Virus record (IMG/VR): IMGVR_UViG_3300025626_000006
Span: 1-64,000 of that record
DNA length: 64,000 nucleotides
From: a virus
Reading direction: 5' to 3' (one strand)
Positions 17,704 through 29,680 of the stretch are shown one piece after another. The notes beneath the pieces were generated by a model. The model saw only the letters and a program-made list of their open reading frames with translations, was not told the DNA's origin and made no database searches. The position numbers and the translations under genes were made by a program. Each line of letters starts with the position of its first letter. Position 1 is the stretch's first letter.

Positions 17704-19581
17704 CTAAACCGTGTCATCTCTTAATTGAGATTCATCTAATAAACCACCTTTATCGGTGTTTTTAGTGTCTTCTTTCAAAGATTCAAGTATTACACTTCTT
17801 GATTTTCCTTTAACTTTCTTTAAAGATGTTGTTAAAGCTTCTTTTTGTTCATATGCCAGTGGTGAGTTCTTGTACTTGTGATAAGTAGTAGCTCGTTTTC
17901 TATCTGTATCTTGACCAAGTGGGTCTCTACCAAATGGATTATCATCTGTTTTGTAGTTACCTGATTCTGGAGGTCTTCCAGCACCATCATGACCACCTTG
18001 AGGTGAACCACCCTCTTGTGCAGGTTGGTCACTATCATCACCACTTTGTTGAGATAATGATGCTAAATCATGTGCAGTACCAAATGATTCACCAGTTTTA
18101 ACTGGGTCATTACCTTCATCTTCTATTTGACTATGTCTGAATCCTAATTTAATATCACTAATGACTTTTCCTTGTTCAAGCTTCCACTCGTCATCACTCA
18201 TATTAAATATATTCTTATACATCCACTCTTGAGATAACATATTTAAGTCTTTCATATCTGAAACTAATGATACTTTTTCAGACCAAAGATTTGCTTTCTC
18301 TTGTTCGTATATGATAGATGGGTTAGTAAGTTCTAATTCAAAGTTTACTAAATCTGCGTTTTCATATCCTTGTGAATACAAGTGTACAACAGCTATTTTA
18401 GTTAATTCAGAAAGAACAATTTTTTGAATTCGTTCAACTGTTCTAGCGAAACGAATATCTTGTTGTGCAAGTGTAGCCTTACCTTCAACACCTTCTTCAT
18501 ACCCAATAAAAGCTTTCGGAACTTTCAGAGCAGCCATCATTCTATTTTTTAAATACTCAATATCATCAATACCACCGAATTCCATTCCTTGTAATGAATC
18601 AATTTCAGTACCACTTTGACCACCTCTTACAGGTAGATAGTAATCTTCTAACATATTCATTAAGTTAAACTTTAGATTGTAATCGCCAGTATTTTGGTCT
18701 AAGTAAGGAACTTTTTTCATTTGGTCAATAATACTTCTCATGTGATTATCAACTTCACCAGGAGGAATATTACCAACATCAATTTTAAAGACTCTCTTTT
18801 CAGGCGCTCTCATAATTCTATGAATCATCATAGCATCTTCCATAAGAGTTAATTGCTTCCAAGTCTTTCTAGCACCTTCTAATAGTGAACGACCATAAGG
18901 AAGGAAGTTTGTATCTGACATTAATCTAAAGTGTGCCATTTCATAAAACTCAAAGTACTCAGCATTTTTGTTTACACTTGCACCATGTGCAGCCCCCATT
19001 GACCCCATTTTGAATCTTACTTCATATGGGTTCTCTGGATTAAAACCTTCTTCACGTTCTACTTCATATGCAGACATTGGTGATGCGTTAACAATACCTA
19101 CTTGTTCTTCTATATCAAGATGTAAGTAATAATCACCATACTTGTTCATACCCCTAATCCATGACCATAGATTAAACTCAATGTTTAGTACGTCATAGAA
19201 TAAGTTATGTAATATCTTTTTAATATTCTCGTCATTTGACTTAATACGGATTACATCACCCATATCATTTTTTAGAGTAGTCTCGTCTGAATATATATCT
19301 AATACAGATGCGATGATAGAATCCTTATCCATCGCTTCGTAATCTGTATATAATTCTAATTTATTAGAATGATAGTTGAATTGATTGTTATAGGTTTCCC
19401 AATGTCTTCGAGTGGTATGTAGTCTACCAAATCTGTCGTAGTAAGATGAGCCTCTTAAGTTACCTTGAGACTGGAGTCGTTGCGTATCAATAGCTTGGGT
19501 ATTACCCTTACCTACCCTACGAACTACCACTTGCGTGTTAAATAGTTTCTTTAACCTACCAAATAATGATTTATCTGCCAT
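17704..19581 (-). CDS. gp20: portal protein, T4 gp20-like
   Basis: LMEDAMMIHRIMRAPEKRVFKIDVGN, MLEDYYLPVRG..GTEIDSLQG, DDIEYL...ALKVP. Confidence 0.95.
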   Translation of the reverse strand: MADKSLFGRLKKLFNTQVVVRRVGKGNTQAIDTQRLQSQGNLRGSSYYDRFGRLHTTRRHWETYNNQFNYHSNKLELYTDYEAMDKDSIIASVLDIYSDETTLKNDMGDVIRIKSNDENIKKILHNLFYDVLNIEFNLWSWIRGMNKYGDYYLHLDIEEQVGIVNASPMSAYEVEREEGFNPENPYEVRFKMGSMGAAHGASVNKNAEYFEFYEMAHFRLMSDTNFLPYGRSLLEGARKTWKQLTLMEDAMMIHRIMRAPEKRVFKIDVGNIPPGEVDNHMRSIIDQMKKVPYLDQNTGDYNLKFNLMNMLEDYYLPVRGGQSGTEIDSLQGMEFGGIDDIEYLKNRMMAALKVPKAFIGYEEGVEGKATLAQQDIRFARTVERIQKIVLSELTKIAVVHLYSQGYENADLVNFELELTNPSIIYEQEKANLWSEKVSLVSDMKDLNMLSQEWMYKNIFNMSDDEWKLEQGKVISDIKLGFRHSQIEDEGNDPVKTGESFGTAHDLASLSQQSGDDSDQPAQEGGSPQGGHDGAGRPPESGNYKTDDNPFGRDPLGQDTDRKRATTYHKYKNSPLAYEQKEALTTSLKKVKGKSRSVILESLKEDTKNTDKGGLLDESQLRDDTV

Positions 19582-19654: not shown

Positions 19655-21229
19655 TTATAGTAACCAAGTTAAATCGTTATCGTTTCCACGTTGGTCTTTT
19701 TGTTTCCATGGGTCACTTCTAAGGTTATGAGACGCATAAGCACCAGGTGAGTTTTTTCTCATATGGGTTAATGTAGTTCTTGTTAAATCCATACCCTGTT
19801 GTCTTAATTTTAATGCCGTATCTCTTACCCAAAGTCCTGTTGAGAATGATATCACCAAATCATCATTGTAACCACGTTGGGCTTCAGCTCTACTACCATT
19901 CCATATAAAAACAAAGAGTTCATCTATTAAACGTTTTGAACGTACAATAGGTGTTCTCTCTCTCATATAAGTATCTAATTTTGAGATAACCAATGGTCGT
20001 GTTCTACTTGTCATTGAGAATCCAGGTACCATATCATCTTTACGTTTTAAATCAAATCCTTTTCGTAAATGAATATCTTCATCAATATAACCAATATCTC
20101 TATATGAATAATATAAGTTTTGATAGTTTCGGTCTATAACTTCTTGAATAACTGCCCAACCTATATTAGCGTTTTCTATAACTAATAAGGCGTTGTTCCA
20201 TTCGGTAGCAACTGAAGTTAAGAATGCCCCATATTGTTTAGTTTCTATTTTACCTTTATATTCGGCAACTTGCTCAACAGTCTCTACATCAAATACATGA
20301 AATGCTGAGTAATCCGTAGAATCACCACGAGCAACATCAGCCACTACTACATAACTTTTTGAATAATTAGGGAAGTCCCATAACCAATAATTTCCATCAA
20401 ATCCTCGTTTTTCAATTGGGTCTTTAACGTGTGTTTCTTCATACCATTGTAGAGTAGAACCCTCAACAACTGTATAACCAGATGAAATGAAGTCACAATC
20501 ACATTCTTGTGCTGCTCCCTTTTCTCCAAGAAGTTTAGTTTGTTCTTCTCTCCATTGTTGATTTCTATCAGGATGTACTGACCAATGTAGTTCTATTGGA
20601 TTCCATTGTTCACCAGCTTGTCCTTGTAACCATACTTTATGAAACCAATTACCAACACCATTAGGGGTAGATAGTACAATTGCACCACCACCAGTAGATA
20701 ATGTAGATTGTGCTGATGTCCAAATTTCTTCTACATTGTCGATAAAGGCAGCCTCATCAATTACTAATAATGATAATGCTTCAGAACGACCAGCATCACC
20801 TGCTGCTGATGTAGCTTTTATTTGAGACCCATTTTTAAGTCTAAGAGAAAGTTTATTATCTTCTTCAGTCTGGCCTTTTAGCCACGATGGTAGATTTTGA
20901 TGCATAAACCTAACTTTGGTAACTAAGTTTTTAGCTACCTCTTGTTTGGTTGCAATTACCAATACGTTCTTGTCTTCGTGAAATAACATTAACCAGAGTG
21001 AATATCCGGCTGATAGTGTTGATATACCTAACTGTCGTGATTTAAGTATTACATTGAATCTTTTTTCAGATACAGCCCCCATTAAGTCTTCTTGGAAATC
21101 ATAAAGATTAAAAAGAATCTTACCACGAGATGGGTGTTGTATATAACAATACTTTCTAAAAAAGTATACGGGGTCTTTAGCACATTTAACGTACTCTTCT
21201 CTTACTATTTCTTTAATAGACTTTGACAT
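19655..21229 (-). CDS. gp17: terminase large subunit, T4 gp17-like
   Basis: KSRQLGIST Walker A, LVIDEAAF Walker B, STPNG motif III, ADVARG and DDLV nuclease motifs. Confidence 0.95.
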   Translation of the reverse strand: MSKSIKEIVREEYVKCAKDPVYFFRKYCYIQHPSRGKILFNLYDFQEDLMGAVSEKRFNVILKSRQLGISTLSAGYSLWLMLFHEDKNVLVIATKQEVAKNLVTKVRFMHQNLPSWLKGQTEEDNKLSLRLKNGSQIKATSAAGDAGRSEALSLLVIDEAAFIDNVEEIWTSAQSTLSTGGGAIVLSTPNGVGNWFHKVWLQGQAGEQWNPIELHWSVHPDRNQQWREEQTKLLGEKGAAQECDCDFISSGYTVVEGSTLQWYEETHVKDPIEKRGFDGNYWLWDFPNYSKSYVVVADVARGDSTDYSAFHVFDVETVEQVAEYKGKIETKQYGAFLTSVATEWNNALLVIENANIGWAVIQEVIDRNYQNLYYSYRDIGYIDEDIHLRKGFDLKRKDDMVPGFSMTSRTRPLVISKLDTYMRERTPIVRSKRLIDELFVFIWNGSRAEAQRGYNDDLVISFSTGLWVRDTALKLRQQGMDLTRTTLTHMRKNSPGAYASHNLRSDPWKQKDQRGNDNDLTWLL

Positions 21230-22368: not shown

Positions 22369-23373
22369 TTAATCACTTTTAGTAGTTTGTGTCTGAGTTT
22401 CTTCGTTTGATTCGATGATAGAATCATCAGGCACTTTTCTTACACTATCAGTTATAGATTCTAATATATCATACAATGTATCATCATTTAAGCTTGGAAT
22501 TAGATTTGAAATCGATGAGGTTAGACTTTTAACTAACGCAGTAAATACACTATAATTACCCATTTCAAATACCGACTTACTATTCCATAAATGGAACATA
22601 CTATTATTAACACCTTCCATTAATTGTGGTAATGGCATATTGTAGTCTTGTGGTTTGAATCCAGCAATATGAGATAATATTGGTAAAAGTGATTTAGAGC
22701 TGAAGTTTTCATTTGTTTGCTGTTCTAATAAAATCATAGCTGATAGTAGCCATTGTTCTGATGTTAACTGAGCTCCATTTTTATGTGTATATCTGACCTC
22801 ATCTTCTGTCAACGTCATTCTACCCTCATTATTTGTTACGAATTCAAAATATCGGTCAAGGTATTTCTGTAAGAATGAAATATCTGTCCATATTGATAAT
22901 GCTGTATTTACTGGTAGTGAATTTAGAAATCCACTCAACTCAATTTCACTCCATTTAAAATCATCAGAATGTTCTAATTTAGTTGGAAATGGATATGTGG
23001 TTGGATTTTCTTGATGTAAAAACACAACAGAGTCGTCTATCATTTGTAATTTTTTATGAAATACAAAATCAGTATCTAAATTAACAAATGGTGTTGTTTG
23101 ATTTTTCATTACCCATAACTTAGGGGTTGCCCAAAATACTTTATTATTAATATTAGATGGGTATCTGTCTAATACATCAGTATCTATTTTATCGTATAAC
23201 TTATCTATACCATAACTTTTGTATTCACTAAGTGTTTTAGTGTTTGTGTACAACCACAATGTATCTGAGGGGTTGTGGTGTTTCCAACTGAGTGCGCTTA
23301 ATACTTGAGTAAGTAAAGATACCTCAGTAATCTTAGTGTCATCATGTGAGATGAACGTATGTATAACTTTCAT
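22369..23373 (-). CDS. GT-A-like nucleotide-sugar transferase (DUF6734-like)
   Basis: LSALSW..LYT, FWATPKLW..PFVNLDTDF (DxD), EQWLL, FHLW. Confidence 0.6.
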   Translation of the reverse strand: MKVIHTFISHDDTKITEVSLLTQVLSALSWKHHNPSDTLWLYTNTKTLSEYKSYGIDKLYDKIDTDVLDRYPSNINNKVFWATPKLWVMKNQTTPFVNLDTDFVFHKKLQMIDDSVVFLHQENPTTYPFPTKLEHSDDFKWSEIELSGFLNSLPVNTALSIWTDISFLQKYLDRYFEFVTNNEGRMTLTEDEVRYTHKNGAQLTSEQWLLSAMILLEQQTNENFSSKSLLPILSHIAGFKPQDYNMPLPQLMEGVNNSMFHLWNSKSVFEMGNYSVFTALVKSLTSSISNLIPSLNDDTLYDILESITDSVRKVPDDSIIESNEETQTQTTKSD

Positions 23374-23422: not shown

Positions 23423-25774
23423 TTACCATTTTCTACAAGACCAATATCTAGCCTTATGTCTTGGTCCAGGATTATCACAATTGTGTCTAGCTCTAAATGC
23501 TTTTCTAGCATCAGGATTATTTTTTCTGATTGACATTGTTTTACCTTTAGCTGAAGACCCACCGTGTCCAAAGTTTACTTTTACAACATTACCCTTTGGA
23601 TTCTTAACGTATACTTTAAACTTTTTAACATCACCCTGCATTGGCTTACCTAACTTAACATCTCTACCTTGGTATTCTGCTTCGTTAATATCACTTTTGT
23701 ATTCTTTCATAAAGTTTACAAAGTCTTTAGCTTCTTCAATTGTATCAACATCATATTCTTGTACATACTCGGTAAATAGTATTCTTCCTGAACTATCTTC
23801 GAGTGCTACTAAATCATTTGGATGTTTTTTCTTCAATACTCTAAACATAGCTGGTGCTTCATTTGGGTTTTGAATGTGTACTTGGTCAATAACTTTTCCG
23901 TTTCTTGATATTACAAGTGAATATGGATTGGGTCTGTTTCTTACAGCTTTCTTTATGTCACCAAGCTTTGCTTCATTTACATCATTATATAAATCAGTTG
24001 CCCAATTAATAGTGTCAGAGTTTTTCTTGATTTGCTTTCCATACTCTTTAAAGAATTTCTTTAAAAAGTCATCTAAAGTCTTAGCTTGCTTTGACATCAT
24101 ATTGATATCACTCATCACACCTTCTTTGAGTCCTTCAGGTAATGAGTTGGAGTATTTTTTAGCTCCACTTAGTGATGGGTGTGAACCAATGTGTTTAACT
24201 ACCTTACCTTTTTTATCTACAATCTGCATAAGAAACTTATCTTCTTTTTCAGGCCTTCTCATACCTTTCATATCTCTATCGATTACTTGAAAGATATTAC
24301 CACTTTTTAATTTCTTTTCAAAGTGTACTTTAGCTTCGTTAATAGATTCACCAAGTTGGTTATGATATTTCTTATCTATATTTTTTTTGAGAGTTTTCTC
24401 ATCTTTAAAATATGCAGTTATTAATCCTTTAAATCCTTTTTGTGGTGAAATGTAAAATCCATCTTTTTTATACTCAGATTTTCCTTTAGAATCTTTTGGT
24501 TCTTCGCCAACTATAAGTAAAAAGTGTCTACCTTTATCATCTGTGATTGAATACGAATCATTTTCGTTTACTGATTCAGATAATGGATTCATATTTTTAT
24601 CAGTAATGATATATGCTGTCATCTGTCCACCCATAGAACCACCCCTTTGGAGTTTCTCTACTTCTTTTTGAGCGTCTTTGTATGATTTAAACTCTTTTGG
24701 TTTATCGCTAGTTTTTTGCTTTTTTATATCGTAATGTCTAATTAATGCTTTACCCTGCCCTCTACCTAAGTTACGAGTAATGTAATATTTAGCTTCGTTT
24801 AATATAGAAGTAAGTTTCATTGAGTTAGATTCTGTGGTTAATCTTTTTTTGTATTTTTTTGCCAGCTTCATCGCTGCTTTTACTATACCTTTAAAATCTT
24901 TAGCATCATCATCTGAAACTTTACCAGCATCAAATCCCTCAATACTAACGTAGTATGGTTTATCTTCATCTTCATATTTACCAACATACAGCATCAAATC
25001 TTCACCACCATCAAATGCGAAGTTACTATTACCACCATGATATCTAGTATCATCAGGTTCAGAATCAACACCTACACCCACTGCTCTTTCTAAAGCTTTT
25101 CTAACAATTTCTTGCTCTTTATCTGTTAGCATTGGTTCTGCTCTTTCATTCAATACAGATTCTTTAATTGATTCCATTAAACCAATTGCAATATCACCAA
25201 CTTCTCTATCTGCTTTATCAACATACTTTTTATTTACAATAGCGATAGGTAGTTTATCAAGTTTGTACATTGGAATCATTGATGTAGAAAAAGAATACTT
25301 AACTTTATGTTTCTTTAATTGATTACCAACATCCATAAATGAACTAGCTTTAGAAACTAAATCTTCGATAACATCTAACATACCATCGTATTTACCTTCG
25401 TTTACTGATTCCTTCTTCATAAGTTTGTAAGCCATATGTCCCATCATTACGATACCACTCTTAACAAACTTATCTTTATTAGATTGTTGTTTAAGTGCAT
25501 CATATACTTGAACCATTAGGTTTGCTGAATTCATATCAACTCTTACCTTCTTACCACTCTTAGTATCTTTAATCATATCGTTTTGTTTATTCTTTACGAT
25601 TTTTCTTAATTGAGTAATTACTTCAGGTTCTTTAGCTTCGTTTACAAATGATGTTGCGTAAGGATTAGAAATAACTTTTCCTAATTCAGGAGTAAATCCA
25701 TACTTTTCTTCCATAAATGATTTAACATTATGGTATTCTTCTTTTACAAGCTTTTTTAAATCAGATTTTTTCAT
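23423..25774 (-). CDS. multi-module putative internal head polyprotein
   Basis: Ten K-rich modules separated by [VIL]-[NK]-E linkers. The C-terminal FRARHNC..KARYWSC module is of a type I recognise from T4-like aquatic phages. Confidence 0.7.
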   Translation of the reverse strand: MKKSDLKKLVKEEYHNVKSFMEEKYGFTPELGKVISNPYATSFVNEAKEPEVITQLRKIVKNKQNDMIKDTKSGKKVRVDMNSANLMVQVYDALKQQSNKDKFVKSGIVMMGHMAYKLMKKESVNEGKYDGMLDVIEDLVSKASSFMDVGNQLKKHKVKYSFSTSMIPMYKLDKLPIAIVNKKYVDKADREVGDIAIGLMESIKESVLNERAEPMLTDKEQEIVRKALERAVGVGVDSEPDDTRYHGGNSNFAFDGGEDLMLYVGKYEDEDKPYYVSIEGFDAGKVSDDDAKDFKGIVKAAMKLAKKYKKRLTTESNSMKLTSILNEAKYYITRNLGRGQGKALIRHYDIKKQKTSDKPKEFKSYKDAQKEVEKLQRGGSMGGQMTAYIITDKNMNPLSESVNENDSYSITDDKGRHFLLIVGEEPKDSKGKSEYKKDGFYISPQKGFKGLITAYFKDEKTLKKNIDKKYHNQLGESINEAKVHFEKKLKSGNIFQVIDRDMKGMRRPEKEDKFLMQIVDKKGKVVKHIGSHPSLSGAKKYSNSLPEGLKEGVMSDINMMSKQAKTLDDFLKKFFKEYGKQIKKNSDTINWATDLYNDVNEAKLGDIKKAVRNRPNPYSLVISRNGKVIDQVHIQNPNEAPAMFRVLKKKHPNDLVALEDSSGRILFTEYVQEYDVDTIEEAKDFVNFMKEYKSDINEAEYQGRDVKLGKPMQGDVKKFKVYVKNPKGNVVKVNFGHGGSSAKGKTMSIRKNNPDARKAFRARHNCDNPGPRHKARYWSCRKW

Positions 25775-25783
25775 AGGATTCCT

Positions 25784-26359
25784 TTAGCAAGATTTCCAAC
25801 CACCACCGTTGGCTTTATATTTTTTAGCAGCCCACCCATTAGCATATGCTGATGGGTATACATCAAACTTAGCTTTAGCTTGTGATTTAGCTGAACTCCA
25901 CTTAGCTGAATCAGTTGGACAATTTTTTTCTTGAAGTTTTTCAACCTCTTCGCCTAATTGTTTGAGTTCTCTAACTGCTCTAAGGTCATTATATCTTTCA
26001 ACGAGGTTTTCATTTTTTAAATCAGATATTGATTTTCCTTTTTGCCCACCTATCCACATTGATACAAAGAATCCAATTGCATCAAGAATGTCGTGACCAT
26101 CCCACTTAGCAGCAGCAGCGATATCCATTCCATGGTTTTCTAAATTATCTTCCCATGAGCGATTACCATAATATTTAGCTTTTTTAGCTTTTGGAAAAAG
26201 TTTATCTACTTTCTTAGCCGTACTATGAAAGTTTGCATCAGTTAATGCACCTTTTAGTATAAAGGATATTGCGTGATGTCCTTCTGGTGAAGATGCTGAC
26301 GTTCCTTTGAAATACGCGTCTAAATCTTTTTTAACTTTTTTATTTAATCTTGGATTCAT
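25784..26359 (-). CDS. putative internal head protein with C-terminal YPSAYA..YK..GGGW module
   Basis: Two modules separated by LKNENLVE / LQE. Confidence 0.55.
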   Translation of the reverse strand: MNPRLNKKVKKDLDAYFKGTSASSPEGHHAISFILKGALTDANFHSTAKKVDKLFPKAKKAKYYGNRSWEDNLENHGMDIAAAAKWDGHDILDAIGFFVSMWIGGQKGKSISDLKNENLVERYNDLRAVRELKQLGEEVEKLQEKNCPTDSAKWSSAKSQAKAKFDVYPSAYANGWAAKKYKANGGGWKSC

Positions 26360-26361
26360 TG

Positions 26362-26772
26362 TTATGCTCCTGTTTTACTATTTGTAGGTTTTTTACCTTT
26401 AGTTTTGTTACCACCTTTTTTGGCGTCACCACTTTTCTTTTGTGCTCTTCGCTTTCTACCAACAAAGGTTTTACGACCATCTGGTCCAAGTTTAGCGGCT
26501 TTTTCTTTTGATAAACAGGCCGCATATGCACCACCTTCTTTACCATCACCACACTTACCTAGCTTCTGACCATCACTTCCGTATCTATCCCATCCACCAC
26601 CTGAGGTTGTTCCTGTTTTACCTTTACCAAACCACTTACGAAGGTCTTCGTTCATAAGGTTTTCTTTAACTAATATTTCATATACATCGGAAATGGTGTA
26701 CTCCACAGCTAATTCATGTGGGACACCATCATTATGATATACTTCATATATGTCGTTAACAAGTTTACTCAT
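26362..26772 (-). CDS. putative internal head protein (acidic leader plus basic LRKWF..GGW..CG module)
   Basis: LVKENLMNE linker followed by a very basic domain. Confidence 0.55.
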   Translation of the reverse strand: MSKLVNDIYEVYHNDGVPHELAVEYTISDVYEILVKENLMNEDLRKWFGKGKTGTTSGGGWDRYGSDGQKLGKCGDGKEGGAYAACLSKEKAAKLGPDGRKTFVGRKRRAQKKSGDAKKGGNKTKGKKPTNSKTGA

Positions 26773-27352
26773 CTTCAGTTTCCAGCTTAGCTATAAAGTT
26801 ATTTTGAAATAACTCAAATTCGCTATCTATTTTTTCTTCCAACTCCGGCCAAGACATCCCATCCCATTCTTCAAACGAACCATCTTCGTTTATGAACTTA
26901 GCTTTCATTGCTGATTTTAAAGCTTCTTTTTCAAGTTTAGCTTGTGTTAACCAAGCCTTACCATTCTGTAACATTTTTGTACTTTCATAAGCCCCATATC
27001 CACCATTTAATTTAAGCTCATGTTCCATATTGATTACACAATCGAAACATTTACCATGAATGACCTTCATTTTCTGGTCATTTCTTTTTGGATTAGTACA
27101 AGTACAAACTTCTTTATCACAATTTGGGAATGAGTTTAAGTCGTTTCTTAACTCTGAAAGTTTACCAAGTTTAACTTTGTAACCTTTCTTTTGTTCCCAA
27201 CTATTTCCATCTTCATCTACCCAAGTTTCTCCAACTTCACGTTTGATAAAAGACTTCACCTCACTAAAACCTATTGTTTTTTTAGTTTGGCTTTTATGTG
27301 TACCAGCAATCATTTCTGATACTGCTTTTACATTTTTTAATTTTTTTGACAT
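26765..27352 (-). CDS. hypothetical protein with Cys cluster (possible Zn binding)
   Basis: GETW.D..G..WEQK motif; CxxxxCxC and CFDC. Confidence 0.6.
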   Translation of the reverse strand: MSKKLKNVKAVSEMIAGTHKSQTKKTIGFSEVKSFIKREVGETWVDEDGNSWEQKKGYKVKLGKLSELRNDLNSFPNCDKEVCTCTNPKRNDQKMKVIHGKCFDCVINMEHELKLNGGYGAYESTKMLQNGKAWLTQAKLEKEALKSAMKAKFINEDGSFEEWDGMSWPELEEKIDSEFELFQNNFIAKLETEDE

Positions 27353-27388
27353 AACTTGATTTTAGTTCTTTATATAAATATACGAAAA

Positions 27389-29680
27389 TTAATAGAAAAG
27401 TCCTAATATTTGATTCAATGGGGCAAAGGTACCTGTTAACTTGTATGTATTACCCTTGTAAACAAATACGATTCCCTCATTTGGTACTATTTTATTTCTA
27501 CCACCAATTGAATTCAATCTTTCCAATTCCATTTTTAATTTTGCTATCTTTTTTTGGTCACCACTTTTTCTGACATCTTTAACAATTTGGTCTAACTTCT
27601 TTTGAATATCTCTAAGAGATTTTTCAGGATTTACAGTTAATGCTGATGACATAAATGATAATACTTCGGCACCTACACCTAAGAATATATCTTCAAATGG
27701 TCTAATATTTTGTTTTGATATTTTAGCTTGGTCTTGCTTATCGGTTTTTTTAGCCCAGTCTAATACTTTAGAATCAGAAATGTTTTTTTTATCTAATCTA
27801 AATCCTTTGTCATAAAATGCCCACCTTTTAACTAATCCCATTTTGGTTTTGTTATCTAATGTAGATGGTGAATTTTTATCAACGTATTGTTCCCACCACG
27901 CTTGATGGTAATCTGCAACACCATTAGAATCTTTTAGTTTAAATTCTTTTTGTAATTTTTTAACATCAGATTCAAACTTAGATTTCATTTTACTTAATTC
28001 AGTATTCTGAGGTAGTTTTACTACTGGAGGCCCTTGGATTGTATATTTAGATTGAACGTCAGCATTTACTTGCTTAATCATACCAGCGAGTATTTTAGCG
28101 TCTGATGTATCTGCTCCGATTGCCACACCCTTTTCATCATATTCCATTGTACCATGAAAAACTAATAGTGGTTGACCATATGGTATTACGTTTACTGACT
28201 CCGGCCAGATGACTTCAAGGTTCATAAATTTAGCGCCATCCTTGAATACCTTATTTACTTGTGCATCGGAAAGTTTAGATATGGCTGATTCTAAATCTCT
28301 CATTGCGAAATTATACGCATCGGTCAACCCGCCTCTATTAGCAAACTTATCTGCGACACCTTTAATGTCTAATGCGTTAAGTCCTCTATCTTTGAGGTGT
28401 CCTTTATTTCTAGCTGCAATTATACCTCTATCCTTACGATATGATATAGCCAAAGCTTGTCCATCTGTTTTTTCTCTTGTAAATTCTAGCTTACCATTTA
28501 AAGCATTTGATATGATTGTTTTTAAATCACCAAATGTTAAATTCATTTCTGTATCGAATGGATGATTCATATGCCCATATGCACCACCTTCGGTTAATAT
28601 ATTTTCTTTAAGATTGTTCTTTTTTGTCTTTTGCTTTTCAGTATCAATTGTATTAGTAAGATTTTCGATATCTTTTGGTTCAGCGAATTTAACAAATTCC
28701 ATACCCAAACGAAGGGCAACTTTCTTAATATGCTTTGCCCATTTTCTATAAGCAGGTCTACCAGTTATATCCTTACCATATCTTTTTTTCTGTCCATCCA
28801 TAGTGTCACCACTTGGAAAGAATGATACTTGATATCTACCAGGTCCTTTGGGATATGCTGTATCAAATGACTCCATAGCCTCATCACCCATTAGATAACT
28901 TACGATGTCCCACCCAAGGTCTCCAATTACATCTTCCATTTCTTTTTGATAAGTTAACATATTACCATAAAAAGCACCAGGCCCATCATCTACTACACCT
29001 TTACCACTTGTTGGTGTATGTGAAGTTTCATTGATTACGTTACTTATATTAATTGATTGTAAAAAAGATTCCATTACGGATTCTACTTTTGATAATCTAC
29101 CTGAAATTAGTTTGAATACTTTAGGGTCAAATTTACCATATACTTTTTTAAAGAATGCTTTTCTTTTTGATTCATCCCCCTTTGACATTCCGTTACGAAC
29201 ATCAGTACCACTTATATTACCAAAAGATGGGGATACATAAACATAACCATTATCGTCATAACCATTATCAACACTTCCCTTTTTGTAAGGTAAGAAATAT
29301 TTTGATTGACTTTTTAATCTACTTGCATCTTTTTTACCTACAACAGTAATGTATGCAGTTGTTTTTGATGGAAATTTTTCAATTACTTCTTTTGGAGAAT
29401 ATGGGTTTTTAACCTGTACAATCATATTGGATGGTACTTTAAACATCTTTGTCATAATTTCCTTTTTCTCTTTGAAATTAAAAGGATGTCTCGGCCCACC
29501 TTGTTTATTGGATGTACCTATGTAAACGTTGGATTTACCAAATTTACTAACAAGGTGGTCGTATACTTTCGCATGACCAATATGAAAAGGTTGAAATCTA
29601 CCTGAGTAGACTATTACCTCTTTTTTTATATCTTCACTTAATATTGAGTCTATTACCCAATTTGTTAAATCATTTCCCAT
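27389..29680 (-). CDS. HIGH-family nucleotidyltransferase fused to a KxDG ligase-like nucleotidyltransferase domain
   Basis: YSGRFQPFHIGH and ISGTDVR in the N-terminal domain; EKTDG, EGIVF and YKLTG in the C-terminal domain. Confidence 0.75.
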   Translation of the reverse strand: MGNDLTNWVIDSILSEDIKKEVIVYSGRFQPFHIGHAKVYDHLVSKFGKSNVYIGTSNKQGGPRHPFNFKEKKEIMTKMFKVPSNMIVQVKNPYSPKEVIEKFPSKTTAYITVVGKKDASRLKSQSKYFLPYKKGSVDNGYDDNGYVYVSPSFGNISGTDVRNGMSKGDESKRKAFFKKVYGKFDPKVFKLISGRLSKVESVMESFLQSINISNVINETSHTPTSGKGVVDDGPGAFYGNMLTYQKEMEDVIGDLGWDIVSYLMGDEAMESFDTAYPKGPGRYQVSFFPSGDTMDGQKKRYGKDITGRPAYRKWAKHIKKVALRLGMEFVKFAEPKDIENLTNTIDTEKQKTKKNNLKENILTEGGAYGHMNHPFDTEMNLTFGDLKTIISNALNGKLEFTREKTDGQALAISYRKDRGIIAARNKGHLKDRGLNALDIKGVADKFANRGGLTDAYNFAMRDLESAISKLSDAQVNKVFKDGAKFMNLEVIWPESVNVIPYGQPLLVFHGTMEYDEKGVAIGADTSDAKILAGMIKQVNADVQSKYTIQGPPVVKLPQNTELSKMKSKFESDVKKLQKEFKLKDSNGVADYHQAWWEQYVDKNSPSTLDNKTKMGLVKRWAFYDKGFRLDKKNISDSKVLDWAKKTDKQDQAKISKQNIRPFEDIFLGVGAEVLSFMSSALTVNPEKSLRDIQKKLDQIVKDVRKSGDQKKIAKLKMELERLNSIGGRNKIVPNEGIVFVYKGNTYKLTGTFAPLNQILGLFY

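Follow-up and report, generated by a model that had tools for sequence, protein, structure and literature searches.

Anatomy of the polyprotein

The DNA analysed here, referred to below as the window, comprises positions 1 to 64,000 of the viral record IMGVR_UViG_3300025626_000006; it is part of a 112-kb IMG/VR record rated 63% complete, and all of its genes lie on the minus strand. Upstream of the TerL gene, the window encodes a protein of 783 amino acids (aa) that appears to be a polyprotein of ten small modules, separated by joints resembling substrate sites of gp21, the T4 prohead protease. An earlier note on this DNA had proposed such a division, and the positions of its nine joints and the ten module lengths turned out to be exact, with the open reading frame (ORF) on the minus strand. 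The ORF and its modules are listed below; residue numbers refer to the polyprotein, pI denotes the isoelectric point and pLDDT (predicted local distance difference test) the local confidence of an AlphaFold2 model.

23423..25774, minus strand: polyprotein ORF (P0001), ATG start, stop codon included, 783 aa
25637..25774, minus strand: module 1 (residues 1-46), N-terminal leader module with a 12-aa leader ending V-K-E and the joint V-N-E at 46
25397..25636, minus strand: module 2 (residues 47-126), basic, pI 9.8, pLDDT 91-96
25145..25396, minus strand: module 3 (residues 127-210), pLDDT 90-97
24794..25144, minus strand: module 4 (residues 211-327), acidic, ends in a fossil leader, Met319...Leu-Asn-Glu327
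24563..24793, minus strand: module 5 (residues 328-404), basic, pLDDT 81-92
24335..24562, minus strand: module 6 (residues 405-480), 10 upstream and 11 downstream neighbour families
24122..24334, minus strand: module 7 (residues 481-551), basic, ends L-K-E
23972..24121, minus strand: module 8 (residues 552-601), helical, pLDDT 83-93
23681..23971, minus strand: module 9 (residues 602-698), its final 30 residues accompanying module 10 as a pro-region
23426..23680, minus strand: module 10 (residues 699-783), pI 10.6, phrog_7595, always C-terminal

The polyprotein (88 kDa, pI 9.5, 15% Lys overall) carries a P1 Glu at residues 46, 126, 210, 327, 404, 480, 551, 601 and 698. Eight of these joints are of the type [LIVM]-Asn-Glu and one is Leu-Lys-Glu, resulting in ten modules of 46/80/84/117/77/76/71/50/97/85 aa. 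An additional possible site, V-K-E at residue 12, closes the 12-aa leader. T4 gp21 cuts after the Glu of Leu/Ile-x-Glu. The eight [LIVM]NE motifs were not reached in any of 100,000 residue shuffles of the polyprotein (mean 0.69, maximum 6). Furthermore, the density of the motif per 1000 aa is 10.2 in the polyprotein and 9.6 in six small ORFs surrounding the protease gene, compared with 0.96 in the remaining 17,698 aa of the window, which equals the compositional expectation. Comparison of module against module gave no significant similarity (best pair 24 bits), in agreement with the earlier description of the modules as mutually unrelated; their description as mostly Lys-rich held for five or six modules (pI 8.8-10.6) and failed for four neutral or acidic ones (pI 5.0-6.8). 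The internal leader-like peptide that had been pointed out, Met-Lys-Leu-Thr...Leu-Asn-Glu, is indeed present at residues 319-327. An assembly chimera as the origin of the ORF was discarded because the exact protein sequence recurs on 11 contigs.

Module shuffling among relatives

A word-indexed search for relatives returned 3935 proteins of 430-1371 aa, and an exhaustive HMMER search returned 4341 representative clusters, 569 of them below 1e-30. The best local alignments spanned only one or two modules, at 70-99% identity, and the family is therefore a mosaic: in thousands of relatives from metagenomes, the same modules recur in different order or number, or as single genes behind short leaders. 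Mapping the query modules on 366 retrieved proteins yielded more than 60 architectures, some with modules in reverse (4-3, 6-7-2-10) or with copies of module 1 inside the chain. The earlier note had raised the possibility of shuffled order in relatives, and this is what the module-wise comparison revealed. Clustering of segments at 80% mutual coverage (single linkage had chained everything) gave about 286 module families in this query-biased sample.

The two ends of the chain were the constant part. Module 1 occupied the first position in 90 of the 91 family proteins that have it, and module 10 the last position in 211/211 proteins, with 64 different upstream neighbours. Module 2 was found next to 16 upstream and 25 downstream neighbour families and retained 80-98% identity over many contexts; module 3 had 24 and 21 such families, respectively, and module 5 was likewise seen in other contexts among relatives. 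Module 7 runs directly into module 2 in P0005 and at locus L008, and its end boundary in relatives is an [LIVM]NE site. Exchange took place at the joints: ends of high-scoring segment pairs lay at most three residues from a hydrophobic-x-Glu triplet in 63% of cases vs 17% at random, when pairs of at least 85% identity were used (a limit of at least 50% was noisy). The joint consensus over 639 distinct contexts was Glu-Ser-Val-Asn-Glu followed by Ala/Gly/Ser-Lys.

Around the polyprotein, the gene string o763-o195-o136-o191-polyprotein-(o334)-o147-o200-TerL-portal was collinear in 16 loci while the polyprotein content was replaced, the flanking genes being 60-100% identical despite the swapped ORF content. 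For instance, a relative with 93% TerL identity shared only modules 1-2, the tail of module 9, and module 10, and at locus L007, with a TerL 100% identical, exactly module 6 was absent. In another near-identical relative (L006:3692-5264) TerL matched in two frames, split at residue 208, owing either to a frameshift or to an error in the sequencing of the contig.

Conservation of the joints extends to the DNA. Short direct repeats occur there, and among the fetched loci one and the same 15-mer encoded the Glu-Ser-Val-Asn-Glu joint in 28/35 distinct cases, vs 5.8% expected from codon usage. The shared 15-mer fits exchange by recombination at the joint, and shared ancestry of the joints may be an alternative source of it.

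Single-module genes stand behind leaders of 7-23 aa that end in a hydrophobic-x-Glu site. Module 2, for example, occurs as an 82-aa protein with a 7-aa leader (its single-gene forms P0322 and P0314 have leaders of 7 and 19 aa), and module 4 as proteins of 126-128 aa behind a leader (P0288, P0306, P0342). Unfused forms were found in relatives and, for module 10, in Flavobacterium phage immuto; terminal modules are without the joint. A hydrophobic-x-Glu triplet lies within the first 14 residues of 72% of the family proteins, and one leader type of the family presumably bears a close resemblance to the capsid targeting sequence of T4. At locus L037, polyproteins of 676 and 409 aa come immediately after the protease gene, with the scaffold and capsid genes next. 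The 676-aa chain has a 12-aa leader, and three of its internal joints retain fossil leaders with a Met; two of these leaders have the same sequence as the leader-like peptide at residues 319-327 of the window's polyprotein. On account of these internal leaders, the chains look like in-frame fusions of leader-bearing cargo genes.

Links to the prohead protease and the head genes

The presumed processing enzyme of this uncultured marine phage is encoded within a cluster of head genes of a distant T4 type in the same window:

19655-21229, minus strand: TerL
17704-19581, minus strand: portal protein (Portal_T4)
15509..16153, minus strand: prohead protease, Peptidase_S77 (T4 gp21 family), presumed processing enzyme
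14922-15494, 14590-14925 and 13880-14584, minus strand: three small head-cluster ORFs with 9-10-aa leaders, from the same module pool
12106-13197, minus strand: acidic scaffold, pI 4.1, acidic low-complexity helical, fitting the gp22-type description
10445-12079, minus strand: Gp23-type major capsid protein (Gp23 match)

The earlier identification of the gp21 homologue was correct (PF03420, 111.5 bits vs a cut-off of 27), and its extent had to be amended from 15509..16141 to 15509..16153. By capsid protein, the nearest cultured relatives are Microcystis phage Mel-JY01 (59%) and Flavobacterium phage immuto (54%). The capsid protein and the scaffold are certain substrates of the protease. Leaders of 9-12 aa ending in hydrophobic-x-Glu are common to the capsid protein, the scaffold, two small core ORFs and the polyprotein. 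Moreover, the capsid protein has a conserved site at residue 60, Leu-Val-Lys-Glu before Ala-Ser, just ahead of the start of the Gp23 profile, and in relatives it begins with a 9-aa leader ending Leu-Asn-Glu. The polyprotein itself is unlike a gp22-type scaffold, with its pI of 9.5 and mixed alpha/beta modules instead of an acidic coiled coil.

A hydrophobic-x-Glu triplet stands directly before module 10 in 225/228 proteins with 130 different upstream contexts; P2 is taken by 17 different residues, whereas the alignment of module 10 shows an invariant P1 Glu. The family phrog_7595, which comprises stand-alone phage proteins of unknown function, matches the last 88 residues of the polyprotein end to end. 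Homologues of module 10 begin with Met-Ala at the predicted P1' position in pelagiphages Kolga and HTVC106P, roseophage CRP-902 and one Nitrosopumilaceae spindle-shaped virus. None of these four genomes with a leaderless module 10 gave a match to Peptidase_S77, and the protease was present in 5/5 genomes with the pro-form, whose pro-region ends in the site (immuto, HTVC008M, C48C1 and two IMG/VR relatives), a clean contrast in a small sample. A more distant relative has a short gene ending in module 10 between TerL and portal (L019:1607-1966), a third position for module 10 cargo.

The three small head-cluster ORFs recur as modules within family polyproteins (13880-14584 in 25 proteins, 14590-14925 in 16 and 14922-15494 in 20). 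Conversely, modules 2, 3, 4 and 8 were found in the interval between protease and scaffold among relatives: module 2 lies between the two genes at loci L028 and L037, module 3 adjoins the protease gene at L028, L029 and L037, as does module 8 at L031 and L038, and module 4 lies at L037 between homologues of the window ORFs 14922-15494 and 14590-14925. Judging from their occurrence in both places, modules move between the variable region upstream of TerL and another variable locus within the head-core cluster. Taken together, several independent comparative tests, among them the low-confidence linkers of the structure model described below, support the earlier reading of a modular polyprotein with putative substrate joints for a gp21-type protease tied to the prohead core.

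With a TTG at 14632 as its start codon, the 234-aa ORF at 13880 would acquire an 11-aa leader that ends in Leu-Lys-Glu and resembles those of neighbouring ORFs; the extended form (13880-14632, minus strand) overlaps the upstream ORF by 43 nucleotides (nt).

Structure prediction and searches for function

AlphaFold2 modelled the whole chain with a predicted template modelling score (pTM) of 0.32 and with confident cores in modules 2, 3, 5 and 8 (pLDDT 81-97), the polyprotein showing mixed alpha/beta modules. Stretches of pLDDT <50 span joints 46, 126, 210, 327, 404, 480 and 698, and pLDDT falls to 32 within the ten residues preceding joint 551. Low-confidence linkers at most joints are in line with the expectation of independent domains and disordered linkers. 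The model of module 1 comprises a helix at residues 3-25 (pLDDT ~77), with residues 34-46 below 50. Modules 4, 6, 7 and 10 were modelled poorly, in part owing to the alignment. MAFFT had misplaced modules 4-9 in an alignment of whole family proteins because the module order is shuffled; these modules thus entered the structure prediction with hardly any aligned sequences, which makes their low pLDDT uninformative. Module 10 with its pro-tail, modelled with a 62-row alignment, reached a pLDDT of 69.5.

Above noise, no known family or fold could be assigned to any module. Pfam gave no match to the polyprotein below E 0.05 and NCBIfam none below E 0.01; the only PHROGs match was phrog_7595, on module 10, and a PDB sequence search with the polyprotein returned no match. 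ESM Atlas yielded only unnamed viral clusters with the minority label DUF5754, BFVD only uncharacterised phage relatives, and Foldseek against PDB no match at E <= 0.001. With VIA-align, the best Z for the whole model was 6.1, under the tool's stated noise level, and the fold search with the module 10 model gave a Z of 2.4 at most. Resemblances of module 4 to the ribosome hibernation factor HPF, of module 5 to chain 8g9s_A (Z 5.5) and of module 9 to T4 Dmd (Z 4.9) and AcrIIC1 (Z 4.8) were likewise below noise and, for that reason, are leads only. Sequence and fold searches gave no family or fold match to known inhibitors above noise. An embedded peptidase was found neither by sequence (Pfam, NCBIfam) nor by fold search, several modules being poorly modelled.

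Neighbouring genes and a recurrent 8-mer

Three ORFs upstream of the polyprotein (191, 136 and 195 aa; 25784..27352, minus strand) belong to the same tight gene string, which the polyprotein closes as the last of four genes. The only upstream intergenic gap contains an 8-mer, TATAAATA (TATTTATA on the coding strand), at 27373..27380 (+). Eleven copies occur in the window, ten of them on one strand and all of these ten intergenic, 17-108 nt ahead of minus-strand start codons:

9627, 10363, 13646, 17684, 19620, 23390, 27373, 40202, 48523 and 63984, plus strand: 8-mer TATAAATA

In the same orientation, the element precedes portal, tail-fibre and other structural genes (nine gaps besides 27373), and it resembles a promoter element common to the structural genes. 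The copy at 27373..27380 likely starts the transcription unit that ends with the polyprotein, which suggests that the polyprotein is co-expressed with virion genes.

The 191-aa ORF (25784-26359, minus strand) shows a partial DUF5872 match at its C-terminus. It is mosaic in relatives, where its Leu-Val-Glu site has taken up extra modules, and its N-terminal 120 aa form the start of many family polyproteins (62 proteins). Further upstream, a 763-aa protein (27389-29680, minus strand) combines a cytidylyltransferase-like (NMNAT-type) domain at its N-terminus with an Ile-Asn-Glu site at 216-218 and, in its C-terminal part, a ligase-type Lys-x-Asp-Gly motif. HTVC008M and C48C1 encode similar cytidylyltransferase proteins followed by site-punctuated modules, and the 763-aa protein may be an enzyme cargo of the polyprotein system. 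Directly after the polyprotein lies a gene for a DUF6734 protein (22369-23373, minus strand) that is missing in several otherwise collinear relatives. A homologue of ribosomal protein bS21 (phrog_21469; 13350-13598, minus strand) is encoded between the core ORFs and the scaffold, and a PhoH-like ATPase (9659-10321, minus strand) directly after the capsid gene.

Interpretation

We propose, with a probability of roughly 0.7, that the polyprotein is a precursor of internal head proteins, that is, a fused form of the T4 internal protein (Ip) system. It would be made together with the structural proteins, and its N-terminal leader module would bring the 88-kDa chain as a whole into the prohead core. 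Subsequent cleavage after Glu by the Peptidase_S77 protease at each hydrophobic-Asn/Lys-Glu joint would yield ten products of 6-13 kDa in equimolar amounts. The basic products, about half of the total, might lie on the packaged DNA, and the ten pieces would probably be ejected along with it. Since the joint is kept as a fixed 15-nt DNA, related phages could swap, drop or add modules by recombination that leaves both the reading frame and the cut site intact. Targeting, cleavage, retention in the virion and ejection are the steps that we infer here, next to the observed anatomy of the chain, motif enrichment, exchange at the joints and links to head and protease genes.

The T4 system provides the closest parallel. 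The T4 Ips share only a 10-aa capsid-targeting leader, which is cut by gp21 (PMC9026906, PMC3012670, PMC12373910); processing of this 10-residue sequence depends on positions 8 and 10, and its fusion to foreign proteins leads to their packaging and delivery (PMC9026906). Ip1-3 each inhibit a GmrSD variant (PMC12373910). Like the present family, Ip1/Ip2/Ip3, Alt and the T-even ip loci combine a gp21-family protease with short leaders ending in hydrophobic-x-Glu, and the proteins are small, often basic and mutually unrelated, with only leader and site in common at a hypervariable locus. The predicted products of 6-13 kDa are also similar in size to Ip1* and Ip2*. However, T4 has one protein per gene, whereas up to a dozen units are fused here, with the site repeated at every joint and conserved first and last modules framing a variable middle. 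The strong preference for Asn at P2, the fixation of the joint at the DNA level and the movement of modules between two loci, upstream of TerL and in the protease-scaffold interval, set the family apart as well, and the modules have no sequence similarity to any T4 Ip. The earlier interpretation is borne out in part; its further steps, retention in the virion, ejection with the DNA and a role in countering host defences or in takeover, are suggested by analogy with T4 Ip1-3.

Other known systems share single traits. Polyvalent proteins (Iyer et al. 2017, PMC5512222) likewise combine many unrelated domains in one polypeptide (2-15), are encoded near virion genes in variable architectures, and were proposed to accompany the DNA and to be set free by proteolysis. 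Their domains, however, are large enzymatic or binding domains (MPTase, ART, ParB-like, methylase, helicase, ArdC), whereas no Pfam domain was found here, and they usually carry their own peptidase, while on the modules of 46-117 aa the capsid protease would act in trans. A diverged gp21 homologue processes the inner-body and ejection proteins of phiKZ and SPN3US after Glu, at several sites in some of them, before they are ejected into the host (PMC5694885, PMC10052503, PMC9026906), but these are separate, larger propeptide proteins of jumbo phages with another site motif and form no shuffled chains of mini-modules. RNA virus polyproteins are also cut at short repeated motifs into products of fixed stoichiometry, yet they encode the replication or structural core with an in-chain protease, in contrast to accessory cargo and a separate capsid-assembly protease. 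A literature search found no paper describing chains of the present kind.

Several observations weigh against the proposal. Hydrophobic-x-Glu triplets number 21 in the polyprotein, and 12 of them lie away from the nine joints, partly inside confident cores, so the protease must need more context or the folds must shield them. To our knowledge, preference for Asn at P2 is no gp21 rule, which makes the specificity of the protease something that we infer. A predicted helix runs through joint 601 and through the possible site at residue 12. Of the ten modules, four have a neutral or acidic pI. Counts drawn from the 366 proteins are biased, as these were picked for sharing modules with the query, and the contrast in co-occurrence with Peptidase_S77 comprises four vs five genomes only. 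Module 10 is also present in viruses that are unable to deliver it via a T4-type head, and capsid delivery is consequently not intrinsic to the modules. Finally, a literature search returned no proteomic or biochemical data for this phage or its relatives.

Among the other explanations, the pieces might serve DNA packing only, remaining in the head to neutralise charge or organise the genome without a specific host target after ejection. The five or six modules with pI 8.8-10.6 and the overall Lys content of 15% would suit such a role, as would the finding that lysines of T4 internal proteins contact DNA phosphates (PMC3012670). We nevertheless consider it unlikely: the neutral or acidic modules do not fit, bulk charge needs neither some 286 module families, even as counted in a biased sample, nor precise cassette exchange, and all three T4 Ips, which are also basic, are specific inhibitors (PMC12373910). 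Alternatively, the chain could be a disposable filler of the prohead core, loaded and cut to act as scaffold or core mass, with pieces that exit the head before or during DNA packaging, like most fragments of T4 gp22, gp67 and gp68, and without delivery to the host. The modules do share locus and site motif with the scaffold and core ORFs, and T4 core proteins are cut into fragments that mostly leave the head (PMC9026906). This second option appears distinctly improbable to us, given that the modules are conserved folded units (module 2 with 80-98% identity and pLDDT >90) and not low-complexity acidic coiled coil as in the scaffold, that fast gain, loss and shuffling between near-identical phages suits accessory cargo better than an assembly part, and that module 10 also occurs in viruses with different capsid types. 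An uncut multidomain cytoplasmic protein, in which the joint is a DNA-level recombination linker or flexible spacer and its likeness to a gp21 site coincidental, would account for joint codons conserved well beyond coding need and for the short direct repeats, but is very improbable, as variable linkers before module 10 keep only the P3 hydrophobic residue and the P1 Glu, leaders of stand-alone modules end in the same site that terminal modules lack, the motif is enriched in scaffold and core ORFs and present in the capsid-protein leader of relatives, and leaderless forms occur only where S77 is absent.

One might go further and regard the 15-nt joint as both protease site and recombination joint. 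The modules would then behave as integron-like combinatorial cassettes in populations of abundant marine phages, with one targeting leader loading exchangeable, equimolar effectors into each capsid for delivery before gene expression to disarm defences. We put this forward as a tentative extension.

Should the chain be packed and cut, ocean T4-type capsids would hold a large and fast-changing payload of pre-made proteins, and the T4 story of three Ips would extend to a widespread combinatorial delivery system. The contrast between leaderless and pro-forms, together with the precise insertions and deletions of single modules, makes the idea directly testable. The approximately 286 module families of the biased sample, none of them of known function, would then be candidate counter-defence or takeover proteins, and the polyprotein itself would represent a natural design for loading multiple cargoes into a phage head by one tag.

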